This document shows, one piece after another, positions 2,961 through 59,567 of a stretch of DNA of 59,567 nucleotides. Below the pieces are notes generated by a model. The model worked only from the letters and a program-made list of their open reading frames with translations, did no database searches and was not told the DNA's origin. Made by a program: the position numbers and the translations under genes. The DNA is taken from assembly GCA_947625635.1 (NCBI GenBank), contig CANQPA010000003.1, forward strand, positions 1 to 59,567, in the 5' to 3' direction. The number at the start of each line of letters is the position of its first letter. The stretch's first letter is position 1. This DNA comes from an uncultured Bacilli bacterium. GTDB taxonomy: Bacteria; Bacillota_I; Bacilli_A; RF39; UBA660.

Positions 2961-4058
2961 CTAGAGTTTTAAATCTATAAACTCTAGTAATATATCATTT
3001 GATACATATATATATTCAGGATTTATAAATATATTATCATCTTCTTCAAGCAATTTTTTACTTTTAAGTAATTTAGATATAACTTCTATATCTTTAATAT
3101 CCATATTATATTTATTTTTAAATTCATTTTTATTTATACCTTTAATTTTTCTAAAACCTAATATAAATTCATCTTCTATTTTCTCTTTTAAATCCAGTTT
3201 ATGTGAATCACTAATATAATCTTTTTTTAAATACTTATTTAATCCTTTAGTATTATCATATCTAATGCTGTTTATATATCCAGATGCGCCTATACCAAAT
3301 CCGTAATATTCTAAATTATTCCAATAAGTTAAATTATGTTTTGATTCATAATTAGGTTTAGAAAAGTTACTAATCTCATAGTGATTATACCCTAAATTTT
3401 CTAATTTAGAACAAATAATCTTGTACATTTCAAAATCCAAATCCTCATCTACATTAGTTTCTTTATTTACAAATAACTTAGTATTAGGCTCTAATATAAG
3501 AGAATATGTAGATATATGAGGTACATTTAACTTTAATAATTTATCTAAATCATTATTTAAATCTTCAAGTGTCTCCCTTTTAAATCCATACATTAAATCT
3601 ATATTAATATTTTTAAAGCCTATATCTTTAGCCATATTAATTTTTTCAAATATCATAGTATCATTATGATTTCTATTTAAGTATTTTAAAAATTTACTGT
3701 TAAAAGTCTCCACACCAACACTGATTCTATTAACCTTATTTTTATATAAAAATTCTAACTTTTCTTTATCGATGCTTTCTATATTGCACTCAAATGTAAA
3801 TTCCAAATTCCCACTAAATTTAAATATACTTATTATTCTAAATAATCTTTTTAAATCATTAATATCAAGCGAACTTGGAGTACCTCCTCCAATATAAATT
3901 GTAGATATTTCATCACCATCATATCTACTTTTTATTTCACACTCTAATTCATTTAAATACTCTTTCACCCATTTATCATTTTTTATATACTTACAAAAAT
4001 CACAATATGAACATATAGAATCGCAAAAAGGTATATGAATATAGATAGATTTTATCAT
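2961..4058 (-). CDS. hemW: Radical SAM heme chaperone HemW (HemN-like)
   Basis: YIHIPFC, CxxxCxxC, GGGTPS, YEISNF. Confidence 0.93.
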   Translation of the reverse strand: MIKSIYIHIPFCDSICSYCDFCKYIKNDKWVKEYLNELECEIKSRYDGDEISTIYIGGGTPSSLDINDLKRLFRIISIFKFSGNLEFTFECNIESIDKEKLEFLYKNKVNRISVGVETFNSKFLKYLNRNHNDTMIFEKINMAKDIGFKNINIDLMYGFKRETLEDLNNDLDKLLKLNVPHISTYSLILEPNTKLFVNKETNVDEDLDFEMYKIICSKLENLGYNHYEISNFSKPNYESKHNLTYWNNLEYYGFGIGASGYINSIRYDNTKGLNKYLKKDYISDSHKLDLKEKIEDEFILGFRKIKGINKNEFKNKYNMDIKDIEVISKLLKSKKLLEEDDNIFINPEYIYVSNDILLEFIDLKL

Positions 4059-6511: not shown

Positions 6512-8287
6512 TTAATTTTTTCTATCCAAAAACCACACTCCACTTACATCACAACTACTACTATAAGGGGCTGGTGAAGGCATCTCCAATTTTATTAATG
6601 ATGGAATTTTGAATCCAGACCCAAATGCTATACAAGTACCAGTTTGTAGTAATTGAATTTTTTTAATAATATCTGCAGTTATATTTGGTACCATTTGTCC
6701 TATATACTCAACATCGGTTGGATGTAGCATCTTAAATATTAGAAAATTACTACACTGTGACAAAGCAGTTGATGAAAGTTCAGATGGTCTTTGCGAAATC
6801 AATCCAAGAAGAACAGCATATTTTCTTCCTTCTTTTGTTATTCTATCAAAAATATTATAACCTATAATACTTACATCAGTATCATTTTGAACATATCTGT
6901 GTGCCTCTTCCAATATTATATGAATTGGAATACTAGCTCTTTTCTTTAGATTTTTTGAGTATTCAAAGAAAATTCTAGAATATATTTTAGTTAACGTTTT
7001 AGCAAATCTATCATCCACATAATTTATGTTAAAATTTATTATTTGGGCCTTTCTACCATTTTCTATTGTTAATATTTCTTTTATAAACTGTTCCTTAGTT
7101 TCATAGTTATCAACATCAAAATACCTAGCATAATCACTATTAATCAAACTTCTTAATCTAACTTTAAGAATATTATATTCATCGAATATTTTATCACTGC
7201 TTAAAACACCTTCAGAAATAAGAGCAAATTCAAACGCATCATATAAATCTTTAAGAGTATATTTAAAACTTCCATCTGGCAAACTCAATTCTACATCATC
7301 AATCAGGAATTGATTTATAAATGTTGTTAAAAGTTCCATCTCTCGTATCTTACCAGTATTATCGATTAATAAGCATTGCTTTAATGGTCTTGTATATCCT
7401 GGTTGATATATAGGAGTATCCAAGTTTAAATCTTTAGTATTATAATGACTTAAAACAGAGAAAATTTGATCTCTAATCTGAGCTGGAGCCTTTCCACTTG
7501 CAAGTATATCTAAAATAGCTCGTGCTATGATATCGTTTTTACTTCTAATAACTAAATTTTCTTCTTTAGCAAATATAGTTACTAATTTCATGGCCTTTTC
7601 TATTATTGGTAATTGACTTTTAGAACTAACTTCTAAAAGAAGTGCTATATCATCCACATTAAGTAGCCATAACGGTATTTTTATATTTGGAATATTATCG
7701 TTATTTACATCAGTCGTGTATGCTTTGAAATTTATTTCAGGCACCTTTTCATTAAGAGTAGAAAATGCAGAATGATATTCACCATACGCGTCAAATATTA
7801 ATATACTCGCTTTATATGGGATAGAGTGTTCTTTTTGAAACAAATTTTGAAAAATGCGCGCTACACTACAAGATTTGCCACTACCAGTTGAACCAAAAAT
7901 TGCAAAATGATTACTAAAGAAATTATTTATACTTACACCAATATCTATACCTTCATAAATAGGGCTTTTACCTATTATGAGATCCCTTTTTTCATCATAA
8001 TTAGTAACTCCTAATATATAGTTTACTTTTTCCTTTGAGATGAGTTTACTCTTAGCTGAAAAAGAAGGTTTTTTTGATACACCAAAGTTAAAATTATCAT
8101 TATTGAATTCTCCTAATAAATTTATACTTGCTATATTATTTTTTATATCAATTATTTCTCCAATAAATTTTCTATGGCTATCTTCAAATAGAACATATAA
8201 ATTTATTATATTTTGCATTTCCTCCAATTTAACATTTAGTTCTAATAATACCGTATTATTTTCAATTCCAATTATTTTACCTAACAT
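6512..8287 (-). CDS. HerA/DUF87-family ATPase
   Basis: [34 protein letters not shown]; start moved to the ATG at 8287. Confidence 0.85.
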
Positions 8288-8433
8288 ACCATCACCTACT
8301 TTATGTATATTATACATTAAAATAGCATAAAAAAAAAGTATTTTATCTAATTTTAACTTTATTATACTTTTTTTATAGATTAAATATTATAAACTTAATT
8401 TAAATTTTTTATTTCATAATGTATAAATTTATA

Positions 8434-18797: not shown

Positions 18798-20117
18798 CTA
18801 TTCAAATTTTGACAACATGAGCCCAATTATTATAAAATATATAGGAGCTACTTGTATAACGCTTATATTCACGAAAGCTTGTATTGAATATGCAAAAAAA
18901 GCACTCAATAATAAAAACATTAATTTATTATTAGATTTTAAACCTCTGATAAAGGTTAAAAAACATAATACAAGATAAGGAATCAAGCCAAAAATGCCAG
19001 TGCTTACGCAAGTATGAATATAAACATTATGTGCATTATCAACAATATTATAGTAATTATTTATCGAAGAATTATTTAATCCACTTGTTGACAAATATAA
19101 TTTAACATTAGAGTTAATTTTTTGATTTGGATATGCTAAATAAAAATTATCAAATCCAACACCAACTAATAGATTATCTTTTATTATATCCAAACTATTC
19201 ATCCATATTTTTAATCTACCATTACCTCCACTTTTTATTGTCTCATTTATACCTTTCTTACCTATTTCCCATCTAAAATTACCAATACCATTATCTTTTA
19301 CAAAAATAACAGCCATATTTATAAAAAATACAGAAATACAAGTGATTATAAAAATAATAATTAACGACAATAATTTATTCAACATTAAGCTCTTTTTTAT
19401 ATTAAGAAAAAAAGCCAAAAATATAATCACTAATATATATGCTATAAAAGGCCCTGTTGATTGAGAATTTATAAGCGATATAAACAATATTATTATACTA
19501 AAATATTCTCCTTTTGTAGATTGTTTGTTATATAAAAATTTACAAGAAATAATTCCCAAAGTAGTAACAATTAAACTTCCAAAGAAATTTGGATTAACAC
19601 ATAATCCACTAGCCATAAATGTATCATCATACCTAATTATAAAATCAAAATTAGTATACATTTGTAATAATGAATATATTGAATTAACAATAGAAATAAT
19701 TATTATTAATCTTATAAAATTATTTATATCTTTTTTTGTTGCATAAAATTTCCAATTTATAAAAAGTAAATAATAACATAACATAGATAAAAAGCCTTCA
19801 TGTCTATAATCCTTACCAAAAATAGAAATTTCTTTATTTATTGAAAAGGCAACAGAAATAAGTCCCGTTATAACAAGCAAAAAAAATATATAATCATATA
19901 TGTCGATTTTTCTACAACCATTTTTAACATCTTTAAAATAAATATATAACAAAAAGGGTATCGAAACAAATAAAATTATAGCTGGATTAATGTAATCATA
20001 GTTACTGATTATATTATAATGTTCTAAATACTTAGAAACATTTTTTAAGAGTGGAACTCCTATTAAAATGCATAAAGAAGCTATACTTAATATTTTTTTG
20101 TTATAAAGGCACTTCAT
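18798..20117 (-). CDS. O-antigen ligase (Wzy_C) family membrane protein
   Basis: About 11-12 hydrophobic segments; NPN, GRLKIW, GVGFDNF, AHNVY motifs. Confidence 0.85.
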   Translation of the reverse strand: MKCLYNKKILSIASLCILIGVPLLKNVSKYLEHYNIISNYDYINPAIILFVSIPFLLYIYFKDVKNGCRKIDIYDYIFFLLVITGLISVAFSINKEISIFGKDYRHEGFLSMLCYYLLFINWKFYATKKDINNFIRLIIIISIVNSIYSLLQMYTNFDFIIRYDDTFMASGLCVNPNFFGSLIVTTLGIISCKFLYNKQSTKGEYFSIIILFISLINSQSTGPFIAYILVIIFLAFFLNIKKSLMLNKLLSLIIIFIITCISVFFINMAVIFVKDNGIGNFRWEIGKKGINETIKSGGNGRLKIWMNSLDIIKDNLLVGVGFDNFYLAYPNQKINSNVKLYLSTSGLNNSSINNYYNIVDNAHNVYIHTCVSTGIFGLIPYLVLCFLTFIRGLKSNNKLMFLLLSAFFAYSIQAFVNISVIQVAPIYFIIIGLMLSKFE

Positions 20118-20260: not shown

Positions 20261-21571
20261 TTATTCTTTTTTACCTTTAAAATTGATAACAATCGGTGTC
20301 CCGGAAAAATCAAAAGACTCCCTTATTTTATTTTCCAAATATCTTTCATAAGAAAAATGTATAAGTGATTTACTATTTACTTGAATGTTAAAAGTAGGTG
20401 GCATAGATTTTACCTGACTTGCAAAATATATTTTAAGTCTTTTTCCTTTATAACTTGGTGGAAGATTAAGCTCATATGCATCCATTATAACATTATTTAA
20501 TATACTTGTTTTTATTTCTTTTTTACTATTTTCATATGCATTCAATATTTCTGGCATTAATGTATGCATTCTTGATTTAGTTTTTGCACTTAAAAAAACT
20601 ACTTTTGCATATGGCATAAATGAAAAATTTACTTCTATATCATGTTTCCATTTTTTCATAGCTATATCCTTATTTTCTACTAAATCCCATTTATTTACTG
20701 CTATTACAATAGCTTTACCTGCACGTTTTATATATCCTGCTATATGTTTATCGTGCTCTATTATTCCTTCTTCTGCATTAATAACAAGCACACAAACATC
20801 GGATCTGTCTATTGCTTTTAAACTTCTAAGCAAACTATATTTTTCTATACTTTCATATATCTTACCCTTTTTTCTCATACCAGCAGTATCTATAACTACA
20901 TATTTTTCATTATTAAAATTAAATTCTGTATCAATCGCATCTCTAGTTGTTCCAGCTAAATCAGAAACTATAACTCTTTGTTCATTCAACACAGCATTTA
21001 CCAGACTGCTTTTACCTACATTTGGTCTACCAACAATGCAAAATCTTACCTTTGTATCATCTATAAATTCCTCAGATTTAGGAATTTTACTTGTAATTAA
21101 ATCAATTAAGTCATATATTCCTGTACCATGTTCTCCACTAACTTTAACTATATCTTTAAATCCTAGTTCATAAAAATCGTATTCATTTTCTTTTATTTTT
21201 TTACTATCGCATTTATTTACAGCAACTATTACTTTATTAGATACTTTTTTCAACATATCGCGAACTAAAAAATCATCGCTAGTTAATCCTTCTTTTCCAT
21301 CTACAACAAATACTACTATATCTGCTTCTTCTATTGCAAGACTTGCCTGAACCTTTATTTTATCATTAAAAGATTTATTACCTAATTCAATACCACCAGT
21401 ATCTATTAAATAAAAATTATAATTATTAATATTTACATTAGCCATTATCCTGTCCCTAGTTACACCGGGTATATCCTCTATTATAGATATTTTTTTACCA
21501 ACGATTCTATTAAATATCGTGCTTTTACCTACATTTGGTCTACCTACTAAGGCAACTGTGAATTTTTTCAT
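20261..21571 (-). CDS. der: Ribosome biogenesis GTPase Der (EngA)
   Basis: Two GRPNVGKS G-domains plus a KH-like C-terminus. Confidence 0.98.
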   Translation of the reverse strand: MKKFTVALVGRPNVGKSTIFNRIVGKKISIIEDIPGVTRDRIMANVNINNYNFYLIDTGGIELGNKSFNDKIKVQASLAIEEADIVVFVVDGKEGLTSDDFLVRDMLKKVSNKVIVAVNKCDSKKIKENEYDFYELGFKDIVKVSGEHGTGIYDLIDLITSKIPKSEEFIDDTKVRFCIVGRPNVGKSSLVNAVLNEQRVIVSDLAGTTRDAIDTEFNFNNEKYVVIDTAGMRKKGKIYESIEKYSLLRSLKAIDRSDVCVLVINAEEGIIEHDKHIAGYIKRAGKAIVIAVNKWDLVENKDIAMKKWKHDIEVNFSFMPYAKVVFLSAKTKSRMHTLMPEILNAYENSKKEIKTSILNNVIMDAYELNLPPSYKGKRLKIYFASQVKSMPPTFNIQVNSKSLIHFSYERYLENKIRESFDFSGTPIVINFKGKKE

Positions 21572-21597
21572 AGGATCATCCCTTTCAAATCAAAAGT

Positions 21598-21626
21598 ATT
21601 ATAGCAAAAAAAAAAAAAAAGTTCAA
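21598..21626 (-). promoter_or_regulatory. der promoter with a T15 spacer
   Basis: TTGAAC-(T15 GC)-TATAAT, 17-bp spacer, extended -10 TG. Confidence 0.6.
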
Positions 21627-21648
21627 TTAATATTGAACTAAAAAATTT

Positions 21649-22068
21649 CTATCCAAGAGTTTGGGCAGTAGACACTGATTTTTTAGCAAGGTCTGCTCCA
21701 CAATCAACTGAAAAATCACCATTGGATTCTTTCTTTACTGTACAATTTACACCATCATCTGTTACAATTGCTATTTCTGTTGGTGCATCACCTGTACAAG
21801 TTTTAGATTTCATATTTTCTATTTTTAAATTATCACATATTGTCTTTAATGTTGGTGTTCCTACTATACTTCCATCTGTTGTTTGATACAATGATGTTGT
21901 ATATGCATATTGAACTCCTGTGTATACAAGTTCTGCTGATCTTTTTTTAGCACTATCCCTTGCATCATTTATAATTCCAAGTATAATTGGAGTTGCTATT
22001 AATGCGATTATTGCAAGTATTACGATTACTGCAAGTAATTCTATCAATGTAAATCCTTTTTTATTCAT
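21649..22068 (-). CDS. Type IV pilin, copy 1
   Basis: KKG/FTLIE prepilin site, hydrophobic helix, C-terminal Cys pair. Confidence 0.92.
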   Translation of the reverse strand: MNKKGFTLIELLAVIVILAIIALIATPIILGIINDARDSAKKRSAELVYTGVQYAYTTSLYQTTDGSIVGTPTLKTICDNLKIENMKSKTCTGDAPTEIAIVTDDGVNCTVKKESNGDFSVDCGADLAKKSVSTAQTLG

Positions 22069-22098
22069 ACTATCACCACCTTACTCTATTACATCACA

Positions 22099-22127
22099 AG
22101 TATACTAGATTTATCTATTTTTGTCAA
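22099..22127 (-). promoter_or_regulatory. Promoter of pilin copy 1
   Basis: TTGACA-N17-TATACT. Confidence 0.75.
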
Positions 22128-22177
22128 GAAAATTATAAAAAGTAAAATATTTAAAAAAAGTTCAATTAATATTGAAC

Positions 22178-22600
22178 TTAAGATATTTTTTGACCTGTAG
22201 ATACTGATTTTTTATCAAGATAATCACCACAGTCAACCGTAAAATCTGAATCTGATGGTTCTACTGTACACTCAACACCATCGTCTGTTTTGATCTTTAT
22301 ACTTGTTGCCGCTTCTTCATTTGGATCATAAGCTTTAGATTGCATATTTTCTATTTCTAAATTACTATATATTGTCTTTAATGTTGGTGTTCCTACTACC
22401 TCACCCTCTGTTGTTTGATACAATGATGTTGTATACGCATATTGAACTCCTGTGTATACAAGTTCTGCTGATCTTTTTTTAGCACTATCCCTTGCATCAT
22501 TTATAATTCCAAGTATAATTGGAGTTGCTATTAATGCGATTATTGCAAGTATTACGATTACTGCAAGTAATTCTATCAATGTAAATCCTTTTTTATTCAT
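22178..22600 (-). CDS. Type IV pilin, copy 2
   Basis: Same first 64 aa as copy 1, divergent C-terminal half. Confidence 0.92.
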   Translation of the reverse strand: MNKKGFTLIELLAVIVILAIIALIATPIILGIINDARDSAKKRSAELVYTGVQYAYTTSLYQTTEGEVVGTPTLKTIYSNLEIENMQSKAYDPNEEAATSIKIKTDDGVECTVEPSDSDFTVDCGDYLDKKSVSTGQKIS

Positions 22601-22630
22601 ACTATCACCACCTTACTCTATTACATCACA

Positions 22631-22659
22631 AGTATACTAGATTTATCTATTTTTGTCAA
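22631..22659 (-). promoter_or_regulatory. Promoter of pilin copy 2
   Basis: TTGACA-N17-TATACT, identical to the copy 1 promoter. Confidence 0.75.
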
Positions 22660-22709
22660 GAAAATTATAGAAGGTAAAATATTTAAAAAAAGTTCAATTA
22701 ATATTGAAC

Positions 22710-23126
22710 TTAAGATATTTTTTGACCTGTGGATACTGATTTTTTATCAAGATATCCTTCGCAAGCAACAGCAAAATCGTCATCTGCTTCTTTTGTTACT
22801 TCACAAGATACACCATCATCTGTTGTAATAGTTATTTTTGTTGTAGTAGTCACTATATTTTTATCTTGAACGTTTTCTAACTTTAAATTTTTAGATATTG
22901 TTTCTAAAGTTGGTGTTACTACTATCTCACCATCTGTTGTTTGATACAATGATGTTGTATATGCATATTGAACTCCTGTGTATACAAGTTCTGCTGATCT
23001 TTTTTTAGCACTATCCCTTGCATCATTTATAATTCCAAGTATAATTGGAGTTGCTATTAATGCGATTATTGCTAGTATTACGATTACCGCAAGTAATTCT
23101 ATCAATGTAAATCCTTTTTTATTCAT
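22710..23126 (-). CDS. Type IV pilin, copy 3
   Basis: Same N-terminus; start moved to 23126; own TTGACA-N18-TATATT promoter at 23158-23187. Confidence 0.92.
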   Translation of the reverse strand: MNKKGFTLIELLAVIVILAIIALIATPIILGIINDARDSAKKRSAELVYTGVQYAYTTSLYQTTDGEIVVTPTLETISKNLKLENVQDKNIVTTTTKITITTDDGVSCEVTKEADDDFAVACEGYLDKKSVSTGQKIS

Positions 23127-23170
23127 ACTATCACCACCTATCATCCTCTATAGTATAAATATACCATGTC

Positions 23171-24190
23171 TTATCTATCCCTGTCAATATTATGAATGGA
23201 ATTATTTATTGAAGTAGATATTATATTTGACAATTTGTGTATAATAAAATCAATCTCTTTGGGTGTAACCATAAGATTATAACCAATTGGATTTAAAACT
23301 TCATATATAAACATTTGAAGTTCCTCATCACTTAAAGTCCCTATCATACCAAGTAAATCTTGTTTTTCCTTTTTATTTTCTTTTATTTTTTTATTTAAAA
23401 AATTCACATTATTAAAAGTTAATTTACTTTTAGGATTTTTCATATATTGCTTATTGAAAGCATAATTTTTATAAATAAAACTAATTGTATCAGAAACAAT
23501 AACTGCAGCATCTACAACAGTAGGTACACCAATAGCTATAACAGGAATCCCTAATGTATCTTTGCTAATTTCTTTTCTTTTATTTCCAATCCCACTACCA
23601 GGCTGTATTCCTGTATCTGTTATCTGTATAGTTTTATTCAATCTTTCTATTGATTTACTAGCAAGTGAATCAATAACTATTAAATAATCGGGATTTATTT
23701 TTTGTCCTATCGATTCTATTATGTCACTTGTTTCTATACCAGTTTCACCCATAACTCCAGGATTAATTGCAGCAAGCCTTTTATAATTACTACTTAACTC
23801 CCCCAACATATATAAATGATTTGTAACAATAATATCATTTACAACTAATGGTCCCAATGAATCGGGTGTAGATTTATCATTTCCTAGTCCTACTACAAGA
23901 CCAAATGAATCAGATTTTATTTTTAACATTTTTTTTAATACTAAGGTTAATGTTTTTCTTAATTTATTAGCATTATTATAGTCAGTAACATCTTCAAACT
24001 CTAATGTTATATATTTTCCCTTTTTTTTACCTAAATCATTGTCTTTATCCAGTTCTACATTTGTCACTGTTATATCATTTATTATATTTGTCTTATATTT
24101 TACTCCTTTTAATTTATTTTTATCTTCAACATAATCAATTGCTAAATCAGTTCTTATCTGATATTTACTTAAATCGACTGACTTATTCAT
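23171..24190 (-). CDS. gpr: Spore germination (GPR) endopeptidase
   Basis: IRTDLA, VVGLGN..TPDSLGP, IAIGVPTVVDA, LMVTPKEID; divergent from rpsT as in Bacillus. Confidence 0.95.
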   Translation of the reverse strand: MNKSVDLSKYQIRTDLAIDYVEDKNKLKGVKYKTNIINDITVTNVELDKDNDLGKKKGKYITLEFEDVTDYNNANKLRKTLTLVLKKMLKIKSDSFGLVVGLGNDKSTPDSLGPLVVNDIIVTNHLYMLGELSSNYKRLAAINPGVMGETGIETSDIIESIGQKINPDYLIVIDSLASKSIERLNKTIQITDTGIQPGSGIGNKRKEISKDTLGIPVIAIGVPTVVDAAVIVSDTISFIYKNYAFNKQYMKNPKSKLTFNNVNFLNKKIKENKKEKQDLLGMIGTLSDEELQMFIYEVLNPIGYNLMVTPKEIDFIIHKLSNIISTSINNSIHNIDRDR

Positions 24191-37486: not shown

Positions 37487-38620
37487 TTATGATAAATTTG
37501 ATTTCATTAATTCTATTACAGGTCTAACGCCTAATTCATTTTCAGTGTCTACACCACTTTCATAATATAAAGTACCATATTGTAAGTACCAAGCTCCTTT
37601 TTTACCATTTTGAGTACCAGTTGTATCTAAAGTCCAATAACCACTTATACCTTGTATACTTTGAAATTTATTAATCATCTCCTGTGCAATACCATCTTGG
37701 TTATATTCACTAATATAATTCGAAGCCCATAGTGGACACCCCACATTTGACTCAGTACAACCTACTTCATTCATTTCAACTGAACTTGGAAGTCTGGACT
37801 TTCCACTTATATTAACAGTATTGTACCCTCCAATGTCCTTACCAGTATTAATATAAATTTGATCTAAAGATGGTATATTTGTCCATGATTTAGTTGCTTG
37901 TTTTAAATATTTTAAGGCAGTAATAGGTCCAACCGTAACGCCTTGGTTATCACTATTCCATTCCTCATGACTTACATTAACAAAATCTAAATTATTAATC
38001 CAGGCAACCAAACCTTTATTTGACTCAGTCGCTGGTTCACCATTAGAATTTATATTTCTATCCATGATTAACTTAACTTTTTCTCCATCTACACCAAGTA
38101 TAAAAAAATGATAACTATCTACTTTATTTACTTGACAAATATATTCATCCCCAGGATTATAAAGTCCAACTGGAACATTACCAGTCGTTTTTGTAGCCTC
38201 TGTTACGGAAGAACAAATAGGTTTATATATATATTCGCATCCATCAACATTAACTGGATTTACTTCATAATTAAAATTCAAAGTACCATACTTAGAAACA
38301 TTTGATATTATCTTTATTTTTAAATCATCTGATATTGCTTCATTAGTTCTTGGATCAAGTACATTTGGATTTATTAATCCATCTACTTTTAAATCATGTA
38401 AAGTTATATAAGCACAATTACCTGCATCTGGTAATCTGTTTAAATTATCCGATCCCCATTCCTTTGCTGCTGCCTCTATTGATAAAATTTGGGTTTCATA
38501 CAAATCATTTTTAGAATCTGTAACCAATTTTGTTATTGCTGTACTTGCTAATAAAGACAATAAAGAAAGAACAATTATAACCGCTAATAGTTCTACTAAT
38601 GTAAATCCACTTGAACGCAT
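37487..38620 (-). CDS. Type IV pilin-like protein with a C-terminal CLec-like (DUF6273-like) domain
   Basis: G/FTLVE prepilin site; C-terminal RLPS..E, GYWT, AWY, GVRPVI. Confidence 0.8.
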   Translation of the reverse strand: MRSSGFTLVELLAVIIVLSLLSLLASTAITKLVTDSKNDLYETQILSIEAAAKEWGSDNLNRLPDAGNCAYITLHDLKVDGLINPNVLDPRTNEAISDDLKIKIISNVSKYGTLNFNYEVNPVNVDGCEYIYKPICSSVTEATKTTGNVPVGLYNPGDEYICQVNKVDSYHFFILGVDGEKVKLIMDRNINSNGEPATESNKGLVAWINNLDFVNVSHEEWNSDNQGVTVGPITALKYLKQATKSWTNIPSLDQIYINTGKDIGGYNTVNISGKSRLPSSVEMNEVGCTESNVGCPLWASNYISEYNQDGIAQEMINKFQSIQGISGYWTLDTTGTQNGKKGAWYLQYGTLYYESGVDTENELGVRPVIELMKSNLS

Positions 38621-38641
38621 AACATCCTCCTTTTTATATTA

Positions 38642-39040
38642 TTAATATACATACTGACAATCTGCAACACTATTAGCATCGACCTCATAATTTAATATCA
38701 AATTGCCTCGTTGACCTTTAATTCCAGTAATTTTTATTATCATATCATCGGATAATTCTTCAAGTGTTCTAGCATCTATAACATTTGAATCAAGAGTACC
38801 AGCTTCTTTTAAATCTTCTAAAGTCAAATATTTACATTCTTCAATATCTGGCAATTTATTTAAATTATCTGCAGCCCAAATTTTAGCAGCCTCTTCAATA
38901 GCTAATATTTGGGTTTCATATAAATCATTCTTTGATTCACCCAATAATTTTACTATTGCTGTACTTGCTAACAAAGCTAATAAAGAAAGAATAATTATAA
39001 CCGCCAATAATTCTACCAATGTAAATCCATTCTTTATCAT
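38642..39040 (-). CDS. Type IV pilin-like protein
   Basis: NG/FTLVE; paralog of the N-terminal ~130 aa of 37487-38620. Confidence 0.88.
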   Translation of the reverse strand: MIKNGFTLVELLAVIIILSLLALLASTAIVKLLGESKNDLYETQILAIEEAAKIWAADNLNKLPDIEECKYLTLEDLKEAGTLDSNVIDARTLEELSDDMIIKITGIKGQRGNLILNYEVDANSVADCQYVY

Positions 39041-51784: not shown

Positions 51785-52888
51785 TTATAAATCAATAATT
51801 CCACACCCATTTACAGTGAATCCCATTTTATCAAGTACAAATACTATTATTAAAGGTATTATGAACGTAAGAGCAGCAGCAATTAATCTTTTTATAAATC
51901 TCGCTTGTGCCTTTTTCATTTCATCATCTTTATCAGAAGCAATAGCTCGTATGAAGTCAATAATACCGAATATAATTACTGCGACTGGTATAATATATTT
52001 TATCCAATTAAAAATATTTCTAATCCATATAGCCAGTCTATTTGAAAATGAACAAGTATCTTTTAAATTATTGGTTTCTATGTAACTATCTTTCAATAAT
52101 TTCAAAGCTTCATATTCATTCAAACAACTTTGGATACAGCCATCTTCTACACTATAGTTTTGATTTGAAACTATATTTCTACAAGTATCTTTTAGTATAT
52201 CAATTTTTCTATTAACCTCAGAAAGTGCTTTACTTCTACAAATAGAAATTTTAGAATTATCAGTTGAATTTTTTTCACAATCACCATATGAAACATATGA
52301 TTTTGCAACGTCTACAAGCATTTCATTAAATTTTGCACAATAACTTATAAAATTTTCTTTGTTTTGCTCAAAATATTCATCAGTTACTTCTTTTCTGTCT
52401 TTTCTTGTTATAGGATAAATACGACAATCAACAGATTTACTAGTTACACTTCTCCAAATTTGTGAAAGCATACCATACTTATCATGAGATGTATCAAATG
52501 TGTCTACACCATTAATATTTATGGTTTGAGGATCCATTGTCGAACCAAACACCCCTAAACGTCCACCAACGATTCCTCCACTTTTACAAACCAAAATATT
52601 AGTTAAACATTGATTAGTATTTTCAAATATATTAGAACCAATATAAAAATCCTTATCTCCATCGAAGGAATATAGCGTTCCTCCATTATAACTACTACTT
52701 ACAGCGATCCTTGTTTCCTGACCGTCCGATTGCTCTTCCTTAACTTCATCTACATTTATAATTATGCTACCGGAACCTGTGCCAAGATGTTCTTCTAATG
52801 AATATTCACATGTTGAAGCTTCTGCTACATTAATTTGTATAAATCCTAAAACAATAGCAAAAAAACATATTAATAATTTTTTTTTCAT
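51785..52888 (-). CDS. Secreted Cys-rich protein with a C-terminal VirB2/TrbC-like pilin hairpin
   Basis: Signal peptide (AEA), Cys-rich body, WIKYIIPV...DFIRAIAS.KDDEMKKAQ.RFIKRLIAA.L.FIIP. Confidence 0.72.
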   Translation of the reverse strand: MKKKLLICFFAIVLGFIQINVAEASTCEYSLEEHLGTGSGSIIINVDEVKEEQSDGQETRIAVSSSYNGGTLYSFDGDKDFYIGSNIFENTNQCLTNILVCKSGGIVGGRLGVFGSTMDPQTININGVDTFDTSHDKYGMLSQIWRSVTSKSVDCRIYPITRKDRKEVTDEYFEQNKENFISYCAKFNEMLVDVAKSYVSYGDCEKNSTDNSKISICRSKALSEVNRKIDILKDTCRNIVSNQNYSVEDGCIQSCLNEYEALKLLKDSYIETNNLKDTCSFSNRLAIWIRNIFNWIKYIIPVAVIIFGIIDFIRAIASDKDDEMKKAQARFIKRLIAAALTFIIPLIIVFVLDKMGFTVNGCGIIDL

Positions 52889-52909
52889 ATAAAACTCCTT
52901 TTTCAATTG

Positions 52910-53932
52910 TTATCGTGTTTTAATATAATCAATAGGAGGATTTAAAATATTTGAACCAAAATTTTTTGTTATATCATAAATCTTAATAACTTTATCCCTT
53001 AAGGCATACTTATTATTTTTAAATAATTTAACTTTTCTTACCTGTTTTTCTCTCTTAGAAAGTAATTTTGATAATCTATTTTGATATATTTTTAATTTTG
53101 AAATATTATACACAGTATGTTCTTTATCACTTAAATTTTCAATACTACTTTCCGTATCAGATATTTTTTTGTATATTTTAAACAACTTGTCCTCTTTGTC
53201 ATAATTTTCTAATTTATCTTGTATTTTTACTAACTCTGTTTGTGCCCTTTCTAGTTGGGTATGTAAAGCACTTAATCTCAATGAATATATAGCTGTTTCA
53301 AAAGATAAAGGATTACTATTTTCTCTAATTGCTATTAGTTGTTTCAATAATTCTATTTGATTTTCATATCTTAAATATGCTATTTTCAAATCATAATTAT
53401 TAGTATGATTATTAAGTAAAACATCAATTTTATTTTCTAAAATTAAATTAAATTCCTTAATTAATTCTGATTCTGAAGTTTTTACTTCACCAATACTAGA
53501 TGATTGTGAAGAACCATATAATTTTGCTTTTCTAATTTTTTCTGCTACATATCCAGTAGTAGAAGCAACTAAGTATATAGTAGAATTGACTATTTTTTTT
53601 ACATTTTTTTTAATATTTGTTATATCTACGCCCTTTTTATATGATAATGGCTCATGATAATAAGAAGAATCTGAATATATATTTCTATTTTTTATAAAAT
53701 TTTCTAAATATGAATCGTATCTTTTCTTTTCTTCTTTATCAGATAATTTTCTATATGCATCTTTGATTTTCTCTCTCTCATAATCATTTGTCGTTTCCTT
53801 TAATCTCTTGTTTGCCATATACTTTAGATCATCAAAATTTATTGTTTTTAGATAATTTAAATCATCAATAGTAAAATCCGTTGTTTTTCCATAACCCAAC
53901 ACTTCATAATAATTTTTATCATTATAATCCAT
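52910..53932 (-). CDS. Hypothetical coiled-coil protein with a degenerate N-terminal J-domain
   Basis: NYYEVLG...KIKDAYRKLSD..KK.RYD, no HPD; start moved to 53932. Confidence 0.65.
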   Translation of the reverse strand: MDYNDKNYYEVLGYGKTTDFTIDDLNYLKTINFDDLKYMANKRLKETTNDYEREKIKDAYRKLSDKEEKKRYDSYLENFIKNRNIYSDSSYYHEPLSYKKGVDITNIKKNVKKIVNSTIYLVASTTGYVAEKIRKAKLYGSSQSSSIGEVKTSESELIKEFNLILENKIDVLLNNHTNNYDLKIAYLRYENQIELLKQLIAIRENSNPLSFETAIYSLRLSALHTQLERAQTELVKIQDKLENYDKEDKLFKIYKKISDTESSIENLSDKEHTVYNISKLKIYQNRLSKLLSKREKQVRKVKLFKNNKYALRDKVIKIYDITKNFGSNILNPPIDYIKTR

Positions 53933-53986
53933 AATTAATTCCTCACTTACAAGCACAATTATACCACATTTTTTTAACAAATTAAA

Positions 53987-54577
53987 CTATAATTGTTGTA
54001 CAAATTTTTTTATTATCAAATTACAATTTTCTGTATATTCGAAATAATAACAAAAAGAAACTAATATTGACCCCAAAAGTGCAACTATAATGTCACCCAT
54101 AGTGTCACTAACACCAGTTAATATAACCCTTTGTGGATCAACATTGAAATAATAACTTGAAAGATATTCAAATATTTCCCAAAGTGATGCAATCAACATA
54201 GAAAAAGAAATTAAAAATATTATATTGAAAATCACTTTATTATTAATTTTCAACTTTACAAGTATATATATAGCAACAAAACTTGTTACAATACCTGAAA
54301 TAAAGTGTGTAAATTTATCAAACCAATAAATTGAATTATATAACTCACAAATAACTCCAAGAAAATGTGACATAAATATGAACAATATATATATAAAATT
54401 TATACCCTCGTTTATTCTTACTTTAAAAATTTTCTGAATTATATATAATAAATTTATTGTAAAAATTATTGAAATATCCTTTAAAACAAAAATTATATTT
54501 TCATCTTTTGTTATAGCAAAATACAAACTACCTATAGTTGAAAATATTATCAATAAAAAATTAATTTTCTTTATCAT
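53987..54577 (-). CDS. Membrane protein (DUF2238/YjdF-like)
   Basis: WFDKFTHF.SG, WEIFEY, DTMGDI. Confidence 0.7.
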   Translation of the reverse strand: MIKKINFLLIIFSTIGSLYFAITKDENIIFVLKDISIIFTINLLYIIQKIFKVRINEGINFIYILFIFMSHFLGVICELYNSIYWFDKFTHFISGIVTSFVAIYILVKLKINNKVIFNIIFLISFSMLIASLWEIFEYLSSYYFNVDPQRVILTGVSDTMGDIIVALLGSILVSFCYYFEYTENCNLIIKKFVQQL

Positions 54578-55628
54578 CCAATTCTCCCATTTCTACTTGA
54601 TTAATACTGTTAAATCTATTTGTTATCTTTGTTGTTGTTGTATGTATATCTTTTACATCTTTACTTACAGTCTCTATACTCCTGTAAAGTTTATCCCATC
54701 TATCTTTATATCTTTTAAATTCTTCATCAAGTAATCTTAATTCAGTATGTATTATACGAGCGTATTTATCTCTTTCTATATTTTTTATTATTATTTGTAT
54801 TGTAGTTAATGTACTTATAAGTGTTGTTGGGCTCGTTATCCAAACTCTCTTCTTATAAGCATATTCTAATATATCAGTAAAATATGCGTTAATTTCTGCA
54901 AATATAGCCTCTGCTGGTAAAAATAGTATTGCTTGATCACTCGTCACTCCTGGTATTATATATTTACTACTTATTGTATCTATATGTTTTTTCATATCAG
55001 ACTTAAACATTTTTTCTGACTGATTTCTTATATCTAAGCTATTGTTTTTATCAACCATCATTTGATAATTTTCTAATGGAAATTTAGAATCAATTGCTAT
55101 AGTTCCAAGAGGTTCTGGAGCAAAAAGAACTGCGTCAGCTATTGTACCATTATTAAATCCATACTGCATTTGATATATTTTTTTATTATTTTTGCCGAAT
55201 ACATTTGAAAGTATATGTTCTAAATTAACTTCACCATATATTCCTCTAGTTTTTTTATCTGTCAATATTCCCTGTAAAGAAACTATATCACCAGATATTG
55301 TATCAATTTTTTTCTGTGCTTCATCAATTTTTGATAATCTTTGAAGTACGTCTGTAAAAGTTTTATTCGTTTTTTCAAAATTTTCATCTAATCTTTCATT
55401 TACTTTATCATTTATAATTCTTAATCTATTATCAAGTCTTTCAGTTTGATTATTAAAATCCGCAGTCAAACTACGCGAAAAATCAGTTTTAAAATCACTT
55501 ATTTCTTTTATCACATTTATTTCTAATCTGTTTATCTTGTCTCCCGTATTTTCACTATTTTTTTTAACTAATATTATAATTAGTAATATTAATATTATTA
55601 TCAATACACTAAGTATTATATATTCCAT
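54561..55628 (-). CDS. rmuC: DNA recombination protein RmuC
   Basis: K.RG.YGE..L, IDSKFPLE, FLPAEA.F, SPTTL. Confidence 0.93.
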   Translation of the reverse strand: MEYIILSVLIIILILLIIILVKKNSENTGDKINRLEINVIKEISDFKTDFSRSLTADFNNQTERLDNRLRIINDKVNERLDENFEKTNKTFTDVLQRLSKIDEAQKKIDTISGDIVSLQGILTDKKTRGIYGEVNLEHILSNVFGKNNKKIYQMQYGFNNGTIADAVLFAPEPLGTIAIDSKFPLENYQMMVDKNNSLDIRNQSEKMFKSDMKKHIDTISSKYIIPGVTSDQAILFLPAEAIFAEINAYFTDILEYAYKKRVWITSPTTLISTLTTIQIIIKNIERDKYARIIHTELRLLDEEFKRYKDRWDKLYRSIETVSKDVKDIHTTTTKITNRFNSINQVEMGELDDKEN

Positions 55629-55684
55629 ACTTATCACCATATATATTATATCATGAAAATGAAAAAATAAGATAAATTAATATC

Positions 55685-55972
55685 TTATTCGTTCAAAATC
55701 CATGCTTCATAACCACCTGTTACATTTGCAACATTATACCCATTGTTTTGTAAAATTTGACATAATCTTCTACTTTGTATTCCTTTTTGACAATAAATAT
55801 AATATTTTTCATTTTTATTTAAGTACTTATCAAAACTTAATAATAATTGTTCCATTGGTATATTTTTTGCATTCATTATATGTTTATCATTATATTTTTC
55901 TATACTTCTTATATCTATTAAATTTACGTTACCTAATTTTTTTAATTCAGTTACAGAAATACTATTTATCAT
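55685..55972 (-). CDS. Rhodanese-like protein
   Basis: LIDIR, HI..A.NIP, YCQKGIQS, GGY.AW. Confidence 0.88.
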   Translation of the reverse strand: MINSISVTELKKLGNVNLIDIRSIEKYNDKHIMNAKNIPMEQLLLSFDKYLNKNEKYYIYCQKGIQSRRLCQILQNNGYNVANVTGGYEAWILNE

Positions 55973-56027
55973 ATAACCACCCTAATACATTATATGTATT
56001 CAATAGTATTTTATAGAGTTAAAAAGT

Positions 56028-58133
56028 TTATTCATCTGAAAAAAAGTCATCGAAGAACTGATCGTCAGTTATTCCATTTTTATTCTTTTTTTCTTCCTCG
56101 TATCTTTCAAATTCGCTATTTAATTTTGATTTTTCATCATCTTCTTCAATAGCCGATTTTTCAATTTTTGCCTCTTTAATAGATTCTTTTTCATTTTTTT
56201 CTAATTTAGCTTTTTCTTGTCTTTCTTCTTCCTCAAGTTCTGCAATCTTAGCATCTATTCTTTTTACTAAATCATCAACATTAAAGCCTCCATTATTACC
56301 TGCAGATTTTGAAATTTCAGAAAAAGGATTATATGCATTCTCAGGCATAAAAGGTGGTACTTTAGGCATCTCGTATCCGCCTAAGGATTCCCCGCCTAAC
56401 ATATTATTAATCTTTTCCTCTCTTTTTTTATTCACAAAAGCTTTTAAATCAAATGTTTTTACAGGTTGTTTTTCTCTATGAGGATATGAAGCTTTAGGGA
56501 AATTATGCCCCCAGTTCATCTGAAAATTAGGAGTTAATTTTGTCTTAAAAGGCATAGTTCTTAATCTCAAAATAATTGTTTCCCATTGGCTTAATCTTTG
56601 AAGATCACTTACAGTAACTAATGGTGTTGAAGAAGTTTTTTCTTTTTCTTTTGATTTAACTTCACCACACATTTTACTTATCTCTTCGAGTGCAGAAAGT
56701 TCCGTACTTATTAGATAAACAATATTACCACAGTTTCCTTTTATAGTTTCTCCATTTTCTTTACCATAAACTTCATTAAGTTGAGCAAAGTTTTGAATTA
56801 TAAAAGTAAATCTAATATTTCTTGAACGAGCAGCTGTAACCATAGTAGTTACATCTTTTAAAGGTGGCATATTAGCAAACTCATCCAATATAAAATTAGT
56901 CCTATGCGGTAATTTTCCACCAGATTCTTGAGCAACTGAAATTAAAGTTTCATAACACTGCTTTAAAAAAATTGTAACAAGGGAATGATATGTTGTTTTT
57001 TCATCCTGTATAACTATAAACACAGCCGTCTTTTTTCTACCTATATCCCTCATATCGAAATCGTTATTAGACAGCATTTCAGATAAATTAGCACGAGATG
57101 CAAACAACTGTATTTTTTGCTTAAATACAGATAATATACTTCCCTTTGTTTCGCTTGGAGCCATTAAGGTGGAAGAAGCTTTCGTATATGCTGTTCCAGC
57201 TGGATCCTTATAACTAAAATAATCTTTTACATATGTAGTGTTAGCTAATTTTTCTTCGCCAACGGTTGTCATTAAACTTATAGAATTTAAATTTATTTCT
57301 GATGGATCAGCATCTTCAAAAAGTGCACAAGCTAACCCTGCAAAATAATCTGCAGATGTATTTTCCCAGAAAGGGTCTTGTCCTTTCGCACTTGGATCAT
57401 GAAGAATATTTGCAGCTAAATCCTCAAGTAACTCAACTGATTTATCTATATTTCCATCTTTATATAATGAATATGGTAAATACATAGGATTCCAAGCATT
57501 CCCTTGCTGTGGATCACGGAAATTTAATAAAACAATATTATAACCTAAACTCTTCAAATAATTAGAAGTTTGCTCATATATTTCTCCCTTAGGGTCTGTG
57601 ATAATCATAGACTCATCGTGTTTAGCCAGTAAATTTACCATAGGTAATACTGTTGTTTGAGTTTTTCCTGCACCGGTAGAACCTATAACCAAATTATGAT
57701 ATCCACCATTATCAACCCATACTTTTTTAGGATTCATAATTAATGGAATTCCAGCAGCATCGGCCTTAGGAGCCAAAGGGTCTACTTCCCTAACATCTAA
57801 ACCATTCTGAACTTCTTTTTCTTTAGCCCATCTAGAATAATTTTTTTCTTTTTTTTGCCCAATAGAAATACCTATTCCTGTTGCATCCTCTTCCTTTTCT
57901 AAAAATATTGATTTAACGCCAGCAAAAACGGCTACAAGGCCAGCCAAAAAAAATACTATTGTAGCGGCTATATTTTGTGGAAAAAAGGCCAGAAACAAAT
58001 TAAAAGTAAAAGATTCCCCTTTTATAAACTGAGATACATTTGATACTGCAAAAGCAACTACTATTAACCAAACTACTGCAAATATACAAAATATTAATAC
58101 ATCTTTAGCTTCTGCTTTAAATCTTAACTTCAT
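56028..58133 (-). CDS. virD4: VirD4/TraG-family type IV coupling protein
   Basis: Two N-terminal TMs, HNLVIGSTGAGKT, ITDPKGE, DPFWE, ILDEFAN, ARSR, QN.AQL..VYG; acidic C-terminal tail. Confidence 0.92.
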   Translation of the reverse strand: MKLRFKAEAKDVLIFCIFAVVWLIVVAFAVSNVSQFIKGESFTFNLFLAFFPQNIAATIVFFLAGLVAVFAGVKSIFLEKEEDATGIGISIGQKKEKNYSRWAKEKEVQNGLDVREVDPLAPKADAAGIPLIMNPKKVWVDNGGYHNLVIGSTGAGKTQTTVLPMVNLLAKHDESMIITDPKGEIYEQTSNYLKSLGYNIVLLNFRDPQQGNAWNPMYLPYSLYKDGNIDKSVELLEDLAANILHDPSAKGQDPFWENTSADYFAGLACALFEDADPSEINLNSISLMTTVGEEKLANTTYVKDYFSYKDPAGTAYTKASSTLMAPSETKGSILSVFKQKIQLFASRANLSEMLSNNDFDMRDIGRKKTAVFIVIQDEKTTYHSLVTIFLKQCYETLISVAQESGGKLPHRTNFILDEFANMPPLKDVTTMVTAARSRNIRFTFIIQNFAQLNEVYGKENGETIKGNCGNIVYLISTELSALEEISKMCGEVKSKEKEKTSSTPLVTVSDLQRLSQWETIILRLRTMPFKTKLTPNFQMNWGHNFPKASYPHREKQPVKTFDLKAFVNKKREEKINNMLGGESLGGYEMPKVPPFMPENAYNPFSEISKSAGNNGGFNVDDLVKRIDAKIAELEEEERQEKAKLEKNEKESIKEAKIEKSAIEEDDEKSKLNSEFERYEEEKKNKNGITDDQFFDDFFSDE

Positions 58134-58142
58134 TATTATCAC

Positions 58143-58613
58143 CTATATTTCTACTGTATAATCATCTAAATATAATTCATATTGCATAACACCTTTGGTT
58201 TTAAATATATATATATTTTCATATTGATCATACACTCCAAATATTATATATTCATCTGCAGCCTGTTTATAATATCTAGATAATGTATATGTATTATTAC
58301 CTAAAGAATTTATATAATCTATATAATTTTGTTTATTACCAAATTTTTTGTTTCTATACTCTTCAGCTAGCAAATTATAAGCTTTATTCGGGTCATTGTG
58401 CATCGTATATATATAATCATTTAAATATATTCTTGCCATAGCCTCATCAGATATATAAGTAGCTATATACTCATTAACTTTATAATCTTTCAAATATTCA
58501 TCATATTCTTCTTCATCCTTAGGGGTTAAACTTCTTAATAAGAAATATAAAATTAAAAGCCCTACTAACACTATAATGACAATTAATATATCTTTTATTG
58601 TTTTTTTATTCAT
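58143..58613 (-). CDS. Single-TM hypothetical protein in the virD4 operon
   Basis: N-terminal TM, AYNLL...Y motif; start moved to 58613. Confidence 0.7.
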   Translation of the reverse strand: MNKKTIKDILIVIIVLVGLLILYFLLRSLTPKDEEEYDEYLKDYKVNEYIATYISDEAMARIYLNDYIYTMHNDPNKAYNLLAEEYRNKKFGNKQNYIDYINSLGNNTYTLSRYYKQAADEYIIFGVYDQYENIYIFKTKGVMQYELYLDDYTVEI

Positions 58614-59124
58614 CTTCTTCACCATCCGTAAATATTTTGCCAGAATATGGTTCAACTGAAAAAGTTTTACTAGTGGAATCTAAGTAAACAATAAAATAAA
58701 CATCTTTATTTTCATAATTATCAACTGTACCATTTTCATATAGAAGATTTTTTTCAATATTTCCATATACATAATACTTAGTAATATTATTATTCAATTT
58801 TTCGTAATACATTTTTTTAGATGTAAATGTCGAATCAGAATCAACTCGAGGTAAGAACTCCATAACATTTTCAATTGTTACTTTTTGATTTTTTTTATAA
58901 TTGTCATCTAAAACGAGAATCAAACTTTCTCTATCATTGGACGATAAATATGTAATAAATCTATATAAACAAGAATTAACCGTATAAAAATTACTATAAT
59001 TAGTTACAATACTTATCTCATTTTCATTTATTTTATCATTTTTATTATAAAATGATGTAACAATAACAACGATTATTACTAATACAACCAATATAATAGC
59101 AGTTAATTTAGATTTATCTTTCAT
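58606..59124 (-). CDS. Single-TM hypothetical protein in the virD4 operon
   Basis: N-terminal TM, L..VLD.NY motif; overlaps the next gene by 8 bp. Confidence 0.7.
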   Translation of the reverse strand: MKDKSKLTAIILVVLVIIVVIVTSFYNKNDKINENEISIVTNYSNFYTVNSCLYRFITYLSSNDRESLILVLDDNYKKNQKVTIENVMEFLPRVDSDSTFTSKKMYYEKLNNNITKYYVYGNIEKNLLYENGTVDNYENKDVYFIVYLDSTSKTFSVEPYSGKIFTDGEEDE

Positions 59125-59150
59125 AAAAAAATCCCCTCACTTTATTTTTA

Positions 59151-59567
59151 TCAAGTATTATAAACATATTTACCATTATGAAATAATTCCCATTCTGCTT
59201 TTCTTCTTCTTGATAATCCAGTTTCAAAACCTTTTCTTATACTTCTATAAAACCAATTTGTATACAGTTCATCAGTATCACCATATTTTTTAAAGGCAGA
59301 TACAAACCCACTTATATTACCAGTATTATACTTCTGTGAAATTAAAGCTTCTATCTGATTATTTGAAAGTACAATTTCATTATTCGCAAGAGTATTTTCA
59401 ATATCACTTCTAGCATCCGCTATAACTTCAAGTTCAACTTGATCAACTATATCAACTGGAATCTTATCTCCAGGATGATAATCATCTGGATTTATTCCAT
59501 ACTTCAAAAAATAATTACCCGTATATTCAAGTGTAAGTCCATGCCCCACAGTTCTTACATCATCTCC
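59151..59567 (-). CDS. GH24 (phage-type) lysozyme domain, 5' part outside the window
   Basis: Frame stays open to the window edge (GDDVRTVGHG); L.NNQIEALIS..YN.G and GLSRRRKAEWELF. Confidence 0.8.
   Translation of the reverse strand, partial: GDDVRTVGHGLTLEYTGNYFLKYGINPDDYHPGDKIPVDIVDQVELEVIADARSDIENTLANNEIVLSNNQIEALISQKYNTGNISGFVSAFKKYGDTDELYTNWFYRSIRKGFETGLSRRRKAEWELFHNGKYVYNT

Follow-up and report, generated by a model that had tools for sequence, protein, structure and literature searches.

What do three complete pilin genes do when they stand in tandem between gpr and der, share an identical amino-terminal half, and differ strongly in the rest of the protein? The question is raised by a 59,567-nucleotide stretch of DNA (here, the window) that forms part of contig CANQPA010000003.1 in GenBank assembly GCA_947625635.1, a genome bin of an uncultured Bacilli bacterium (RF39; UBA660). 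The three proteins are type IV pilins, and the explanation that we favor, with moderate confidence, is that they are duplicated major pilins that co-assemble in mixed pili and constitute a set of fixed, occasionally recombining paralogs. The main points of interest are the slot that the genes occupy, which is found throughout the genus with 1 to 9 copies, and a clean signal of gene conversion.

The open reading frame (ORF) listing and a protein alignment place three head-to-tail, full-length prepilin genes, all on the minus strand, in the interval between gpr and der. The upstream border of this slot is gpr, which encodes germination protease (23171..24190, minus strand; PF03418, Peptidase_A25, E value of 2.4e-105), and the downstream border is der, which encodes the Der/EngA GTPase (20261..21571, minus strand; two MMR_HSR1 domains plus a KH_dom-like domain). 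Copy 3 (22710..23126; 138 amino acids from MNKK) adjoins gpr, copy 2 (22178..22600; 140 amino acids) lies in the middle, and copy 1 (21649..22068; 139 amino acids) adjoins der. Position 23144 is another possible start for the ORF of copy 3, but 23126 was chosen, which fits the ribosome-binding site shared by all three. The initial annotation of this DNA described units of about 532 bp whose first 64 residues are identical, with about three base differences, and whose carboxy-terminal halves differ heavily and include indels; the alignments agree with it in every detail checked. The units recur at intervals of 532 and 526 bp, residues 1 to 64 are identical, and columns 62 to 268 of the DNA alignment (ribosome-binding site to codon 64) contain 3 variable columns (113, 128, and 239), whereas 88 ungapped variable columns plus indels follow from column 269 on. 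Pairwise protein identity is 75 to 79%. The shared motifs that had been named are all present in the alignment, as is the extra cysteine pair reported for copy 1 (C78 and C91), which is added to a conserved pair.

Each copy also has putative expression signals of its own, in keeping with the earlier description of full-length genes that each carry a promoter and a terminator. Promoter-like sites on the minus strand precede copy 3 (23158..23187; TTGACA, 18 nt, and TATATT, with TG before the second hexamer), copy 2 (22631..22659; TTGACA, 17 nt, and TATACT), and copy 1 (22099..22127; TTGACA, 17 nt, and TATACT). Each of them matches at 11 of the 12 hexamer positions, and they are the best three promoter-like sites within positions 21400 to 23400. 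The scan found 17 promoter-like sites overall, versus 14.7 expected in shuffled sequences; because this total is close to that of the shuffles, only the position and the quality of the sites count. Folding placed terminator-like hairpins after all three pilin genes, with AT-rich stems of 8 to 9 bp, energies of -6.6 to -7.5 kcal/mol, and z scores of about -3, followed by 7 to 15 T residues. The hairpin of copy 3 (22690..22711, minus strand) has a 9-bp stem, a 4-nt loop, and T7 (-7.5 kcal/mol, z of -3.2), that of copy 2 (22158..22179, minus strand; -7.5 kcal/mol, z of -3.3) overlaps the stop codon, and that of copy 1 (21606..21639, minus strand; centroid energy of -6.6 kcal/mol, z of -3.05), which is followed by T15, overlaps a promoter-like site of der (21626-21598, minus strand; 10 of 12 matches). 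A terminator scan returned no sites under its G+C rule because it requires three G-C pairs and these hairpins are AT rich.

In all three proteins, the leader MNKKG is followed by the cleavage site and then by FTLIELLAVIVILAIIALIA, with the G|FTLIE motif present; this agrees with a class III signal peptide, in which a short basic leader ending in Gly precedes Phe+1, Glu+5, and a hydrophobic segment. The only family matches above cutoff are to PF07963 (34.7 to 34.9 bits; cutoff of 21.2) and TIGR02532 (about 35 bits; cutoff of 16.3), with copy 3 scoring 34.9 and 35 bits, respectively. An AlphaFold2 model of copy 2, built from an alignment of 111 homologs, has a mean predicted local distance difference test score of 82.1 and predicts a lollipop fold, in which residues 8 to 62 form one helix and a second, short helix leads into a sheet of four strands (86 to 91, 101 to 105, 110 to 116, and 119 to 123). 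Cysteines 111 and 124 (copy 2 numbering) are invariant in the 111 aligned homologs and bracket the last strands; type IVa pilins have a disulfide loop at the corresponding position. A Foldseek search against the Protein Data Bank (PDB) returned no match at an E value of <=0.001, the best being PilA5 of Thermus thermophilus (6.5e-3). PilA5 was also the top match of an all-against-all structural aligner (Z of 7.7, root mean square deviation of 3.7 over 107 residues, 18% identity), followed by PilA4 (Z of 5.5) and MshA (Z of 5.2), and about 15 of its 50 rows are pilins or pseudopilins, including PilE1 of Streptococcus sanguinis (Z of 4.2). The assignment to the predicted pilin fold rests on motif, model, and pilin enrichment together. 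With family matches above cutoff, the cleavage motif, and the lollipop model, the original assignment of the three proteins as type IV pilins holds.

The slot between gpr and der is a genus-wide fixed trait. A protein search of 41 genomes (E value of <=1e-10) gave matches in 24 of 24 same-genus genomes, in a single other genome of the order, and in none of the 15 genomes that represent other families in the class. The best locus was taken from 20 of the 24 same-genus genomes (G011, G012, G017, and G022 were left out). The order rpsT, gpr, pilin(s) is found in all 20 of these loci, and der follows the pilin(s) in 19, being absent from the stretch covered for G008. The slot holds one pilin gene in 15 genomes, two in G004, three in G021, G015, and G023, and nine in G002. 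In the G002 array (L042, G002:C26, about 11.4 to 15.9 kb), two types of pilin gene are interspersed among the nine tandem genes, several of which start with GTG. A scan based on Gpr, with one genome per species and 80 loci kept, drew the boundary of the trait: pilin(s) directly follow gpr in 19 of 19 loci whose Gpr is >=74% identical, while 58 of 61 loci with Gpr <=59% identical have no prepilin-motif ORF in the downstream sequence covered (<=3 kb, and <2 kb in six). In two of the other loci, such an ORF lies at a distance of about 2.6 kb, and in L208 an ORF of 541 amino acids adjoins gpr. In L172, L194, and L196, der begins about 100 bases past the point where the gpr match stops, and nothing lies in this gap. 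It is this pattern that makes the pilin slot a trait of the genus, whose members are, by their record titles, bins of uncultured Bacilli from the guts of rabbits, ruminants, and humans. Nature thus supplies genomes with 1, 2, 3, and 9 copies at a single fixed site, a ready comparison for the role of extra major pilins.

The three copies are lineage-specific, in-place tandem duplicates. In a full-length tree of 38 slot pilins, the window copies form a clade (support of 98/96), as do the copies of G021, of G015, of G004, and, less firmly, of G023; the two G002 types split, one standing beside the window clade and one with G015. Because identical amino termini could force such clades, the tree was repeated with the C-terminal domain only (72 rows: 19 slot pilins from 7 genomes and 53 database homologs), and the window copies again form one clade (100/99), on a long stem and with no database sequence inside it. 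Among 5.8 billion sequences, no protein is more than 69% identical to copy 2, the window's own three aside. The C-terminal clade and the lack of any close outside protein indicate that both duplication and divergence took place within the slot, as opposed to an import of foreign alleles. They are also old, with a synonymous divergence (dS) of about 0.5 in the 3' half. In a metagenome contig collection, a degenerate DNA pattern for residues 31 to 55 matched 0 stretches, and among the 80 metagenome contig loci kept, the best was 63% identical over residues 1 to 62 and none was both full length and close.

Set against this age, the 5' halves are strikingly uniform. The tract from the ribosome-binding site to codon 64 spans 22935..23139 in copy 3, 22409..22613 in copy 2, and 21877..22081 in copy 1 (all on the minus strand), as delimited by the DNA alignment and by exact repeats; near-identity between copies 1 and 2 extends upstream through the spacer, with exact repeats of 233 bp and 57 bp. 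By the Nei-Gojobori method, dS among the three copies is 0.02 to 0.08 in the 5' half and 0.45 to 0.64 in the 3' half. Splitting by codon gives 0.02 to 0.07 for codons 1 to 64 and 0.49 to 0.64 for the rest, and mature-protein numbering gives 0.025 to 0.077 and 0.45 to 0.59. Where the residue is the same in two copies, the codon differs at 1 to 3 of 63 positions in the 5' half versus 7 to 10 of 40 to 44 in the 3' half (Fisher P values of 0.0005, 0.013, and 0.088 for the three pairs). Other arrays in the genus are different. Over the same 55 codons, the arrays of G002, G021, G015, and G023 have nonsynonymous divergence (dN) of 0 to 0.13 with dS of 0.2 to 0.68; in the sister array pairs tested, 8 to 17 of 56 to 58 same-residue codons differ, and G004 is intermediate (dS of 0.17 in the 5' half versus 0.89 in the 3' half). 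Since the sister arrays have diverged at synonymous sites, synonymous constraint is not general, and the 5' protein sequence is kept by selection everywhere. The DNA identity is special to the window and marks a recent event of gene conversion or unequal crossover, which homogenized the 5' halves from the ribosome-binding site to codon 64; it does not mark synonymous constraint. The old 5' divergence in four sister arrays also means that conversion is infrequent. The contrast between the homogenized 5' halves here and four of five sister arrays is a clean example that separates gene conversion from purifying selection.

The proposal that recombination and diversifying selection generate pilus variants is only partly borne out. 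Recombination is seen in the 5' homogenization and in one shared 3' block, yet the conversion observed makes the copies alike and was not seen to produce variants. Of the mosaic sharing described at the outset, the block that copies 2 and 3 have in common beyond alignment column 455 is significant (maximum chi-square permutation P of 0.0007 to 0.002), whereas the block common to copies 1 and 2 is not significant alone (P of 0.08 to 0.13). The selection part is not supported: pairwise dN/dS in the variable half is 0.51 to 0.62, below 1, and the single ratio above 1 (2.6, in one pair over 26 codons) rests on 1.2 synonymous differences.

Known programmed switches likewise have no counterpart at this locus. 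In Neisseria, pilE is the one expressed gene, the pilS cassettes are silent, promoterless, and 5' truncated, and a G-quadruplex lies near the expression locus. The array resembles pilE/pilS in its constant 5' part, its variable 3' parts, and recombination between copies. Unlike that system, all window copies are complete with promoter-like sites, and no truncated, promoterless, or silent cassettes were found; a regular-expression scan of both strands found no G-quadruplex motif in the whole window; and conversion homogenizes the constant part, with no movement of a cassette into an expression site seen. Apart from the T15 terminator tail, the array contains no homopolymer of >=8 nt. Switches of the Moraxella tfpQ/I type and shufflons have inverted repeats flanking the variable part and a site-specific recombinase nearby. 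An invertible segment was considered and rejected, in that all copies lie on one strand, the neighbors are gpr and der, and no convincing flanking repeats were found, only AT-rich pairs with 70 to 88% complementarity and the terminator palindromes. The array was also rejected as the target of a diversity-generating retroelement (DGR), having no template match (best match to the retroelement template region, E value of 0.006 over 26 nt) and copies that differ by indels. The genome does contain a single RVT_1 gene with a template/variable pair, unrelated to the array, on contig C36: a pilin-like gene (212-1684; 490 amino acids), a template (about 1909-2053), and RVT_1 (3164-3766). This DGR targets the pilin-like protein: the last 148 nt of its gene are 70% identical to the downstream repeat, and 26 of 39 substitutions fall at template adenines. 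The array itself is a fixed paralog set that recombines occasionally and not a programmed switching system.

The machinery that would serve these pilins lies elsewhere in the source genome, a bin of 1.30 Mb in 83 contigs with 26.5% G+C, estimated at 89.7% complete and 7.8% contaminated. Contig C35 encodes a PilB/GspE-like ATPase (483 amino acids; T2SSE, 417 bits), a PilC/GspF-like platform protein (578 amino acids; two T2SSF domains, 161 bits), and a prepilin peptidase (PilD; A24_N_bact and Peptidase_A24), together with two small minor-pilin-like genes. Three genes in the genome score above the T2SSE cutoff: the PilB-like gene, one in a Tad-like cluster, and one of 373 amino acids among unassigned genes. 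The sole PilM_2 match was rejected as a PilM candidate, being FtsA beside FtsZ.

In the model that we propose, each pilin gene would be transcribed from its own strong promoter-like site, and each prepilin would be cut after Gly5 by the prepilin peptidase of the genome and polymerized by the single PilB/PilC machine. The alpha1 helix, predicted to form the filament core, is identical in all three proteins, which should therefore be interchangeable in the filament. The most likely outcome is that the three pilins co-assemble and give mixed pili whose outer surface varies, on the pattern of S. sanguinis PilE1/PilE2, while an older exchange would account for the 3' block common to copies 2 and 3.

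PilE1/PilE2 of S. sanguinis is the closest known system, and with respect to it the array opens no new mechanism. Two reports (PMC6497953 and PMC10628169) describe PilE1 and PilE2 as about 80% identical proteins with identical N termini that form heteropolymers, differ mainly by an 8-residue loop, and are arranged stochastically, which the authors propose aids immune evasion. Homopolymers of either pilin are reported to work (PMC6497953), and according to a 2023 statement, no bacterial type IV filament structure other than the S. sanguinis pilus was known to be heteropolymeric (PMC10628169). The two systems share a monoderm host, several full-length major pilin genes with identical N termini and about 75 to 80% identity, a main pilin difference in the form of a loop indel in the alpha-beta region, and large modular minor pilins, one of which carries a ConA-like lectin module in the present genome. 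They differ in that the present genome has three copies, and a sister species as many as nine, where S. sanguinis has two; the gpr-der slot is separate from the machinery genes, and each pilin gene in it has its own promoter-like site and terminator-like hairpin; the pilins have a conserved cysteine pair; and no PilT, PilM, PilN, or PilO was found. Heteropolymers are established for S. sanguinis, where co-purification with a tagged pilin was assayed, whereas co-assembly is predicted here.

Several observations weigh against co-assembly of stable paralogs in a type IV pilus. The lack of PilT, PilM, PilN, and PilO in the 89.7%-complete bin indicates a machine simpler than the studied type IVa pili of Firmicutes, and the filament could be nonretractile or of a secretion type. 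Structural Z scores below 8, such as the 7.7 of PilA5, are common by chance according to the aligner's own note. The stricter same-residue codon test reaches significance in two pairs but not in the third. The number and order of the copies come from a single assembly, which runs through exact repeats of 233, 143, and 110 bp, and a few real differences between the 5' halves could have been lost during assembly.

That last point leads to the idea that the array is an artefact, in which the assembler joined end to end the alleles that different strains have of one pilin gene. The contamination of the bin, exact repeats (up to 233 bp) that exceed usual k-mer sizes, and the four contigs of the genome that end within pilin 5' sequences all speak for it. 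We nevertheless regard it as highly improbable, given that each of the two 109-nt spacers links the 3' end of one pilin gene, with its terminator, to the promoter and 5' end of the next and is unlike both outer flanks, junctions that would not arise from single-copy alleles; that arrays of 2, 3, 3, 3, and 9 copies occupy the same slot in separate assemblies of five other species; and that three base differences persist in the 5' halves. A different objection concerns the kind of filament, which could be a secretion or competence filament with the three proteins as ComGC- or GspG-like pseudopilins. The machinery genes found, limited to those that are PilB/GspE-like, PilC/GspF-like, and PilD, would suit such a filament, and weak matches to the ComGC model NF040999 (24.1 to 28.2 bits) and to the GspG model (24 to 25 bits) point the same way. 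These matches, like those to other named pilins, are far under the cutoffs (75 and 88.85 for ComGC and GspG, respectively) and cover mainly the N terminus, the ATPase reaches 271 bits versus a ComGA cutoff of 300 and scores higher on the PilB and GspE models, and the mature proteins, at 134 to 136 residues with a disulfide-bracketed C-terminal region, resemble type IVa major pilins; pseudopilins are thus very unlikely.

If the proteins are major pilins, each might still have a task of its own, such as substrate adhesion or DNA uptake, in separate filaments or under separate conditions. PilA4 and PilA5 of T. thermophilus have separate roles on one machine. The entries for these proteins (PDB 6xxd and 6xxe) show two pilins and two filament types. 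The present array is similar in having more than one major pilin per machine, and its best structural match is PilA5, but its three copies, as close paralogs, are unlikely to build different filament architectures. The individual promoter-like sites and hairpins would allow such a division of labor, and 23 of the 24 variable columns upstream of the genes set copy 3 apart from copies 1 and 2, which would leave room for different regulation. All three copies share one -35 hexamer, ribosome-binding site, and spacing, identity of 75 to 79% with identical alpha1 helices is closer than would be expected for structurally distinct pilins, and either S. sanguinis pilin works as a homopolymer (PMC6497953); on balance a division of labor seems unlikely. 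Frequent recombination among expressed copies, yielding chimeric pilins that let lineages escape phages or antibodies, is the remaining alternative. Phage or immune escape is a reasonable candidate motive for pilin variation, the identical 5' halves of about 205 to 290 bp offer ample homology for exchange, and there is one significant breakpoint near alignment column 455. The family is also very polymorphic: databases contain variants with 81 to 98% identity for G016 and G019, both single-copy species, and the 1408 homologs at an E value of <=1e-10 fall mostly in clusters of 1 to 5 members. A dN/dS ratio of 0.5 to 0.6 argues against this explanation, as do the 5'-half dS of 0.2 to 0.68 in four other species' arrays, by which exchange is rare over time, and the specific close matches that members of the nine-gene G002 array have elsewhere (G002_7 to P0032, 95.7%; G002_2 to P0017, 91.7%), which fit stable orthologs. 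With no G-quadruplex motif in the window, no slippery homopolymer in the array besides a terminator tail, and no flanking inverted repeat above 88% complementarity found, we consider a variation system of this kind quite unlikely. Co-assembly of stable paralogs therefore remains the reading that we prefer.

Judged by title or abstract, none of the papers retrieved on tandem type IV pilin paralogs and gene conversion deals with arrays of this kind. The locus and its relatives suggest that an uncultured gut lineage may commonly build multipilin pili. A bolder and tentative extension, which we consider doubtful, is that the genus builds stochastically mixed pili from three to nine co-expressed major pilins, that occasional conversion within the array makes new chimeras of them, and that the filament is a scaffold for the modular adhesins fused to pilin, encoded by the dozen in these 1-Mb genomes and in some cases subject to hypermutation by a retroelement. 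If true, this would amount to a layered surface-variation strategy in a gut symbiont and to the most extreme heteropolymeric type IV pili.

Other pilin-like genes are scattered through the genome. A whole-genome motif scan listed 25 prepilin-motif ORFs in 1.3 Mb, one of them doubtful (68 amino acids, on C32), on contigs C1, C2, C3, C5, C6, C9, C11, C16, C26, C32, C33, C35, C36, C44, C52, and C59. Thirteen large ones are 300 to 561 amino acids long, and a fourteenth of 211 amino acids was also scanned. Ten of these 14 have no Pfam domain besides N_methyl, and the other 4 carry modules: Bact_surface_Ig-like (plus a subthreshold HYR), Laminin_G_3 (a ConA-like lectin), DUF285 with leucine-rich repeats, and DUF6273. 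In G005, a sister genome, the pilin query had 64 matches. Four contigs of the source genome end inside a pilin 5' end (C11, 1-104; C52, 1-104; C26, 16602-16664; and C59, 4480-4631), C44 and C36 start 79 to 212 nt upstream of a pilin gene, and the pilin 5' sequence at those contig ends is about 80 to 88% identical to that of the array. Because contigs break in pilin 5' repeats, the pilin count of the genome is a lower bound, and further pilin genes probably remain unassembled. Contig C1 carries another pilin gene, of 120 amino acids. Within the window, a second pilin-like pair (37487-39040, minus strand) encodes proteins of 132 amino acids (38642-39040) and 377 amino acids with the N-terminal variant GFTLVELLAVII and sits between queA and an alpha/beta hydrolase gene, far from the machinery.

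A Tad-like pilus cluster on contig C31 (7820-12657) contains two short TadE-like genes, a CpaE-like ATPase gene, and genes for two membrane proteins. It was judged by sequence alone, with T2SSE and T2SSF the only domains checked against family models, and would be a second filament system in a small genome. Just after der, the window encodes a Wzy_C (O-antigen ligase) membrane protein of 439 amino acids (18798-20117, minus strand), which tblastn placed in the same position in 12 of 20 related loci; in three outgroup loci without a pilin, it was unseen within 1.6 kb after der. Pilin O-glycosyltransferases of the TfpO/PglL type carry a Wzy_C domain, and pilin copies 2 and 3 end in Ser; the Wzy_C protein is a speculative candidate for pilin glycosylation. 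Elsewhere in the window, a HerA-like ATPase gene lies between lepA and dnaE (6512-8317, minus strand); its matches to anti-phage HerA models are partial, at 155 bits, far under the cutoffs of 800 to 850. The end of the window (51785-59549, minus strand) is probably an integrated conjugative element, with genes for a VirD4-like coupling protein of the CD1115 family (56028-58142, 296 bits), unassigned ORFs, and an RmuC-like gene.

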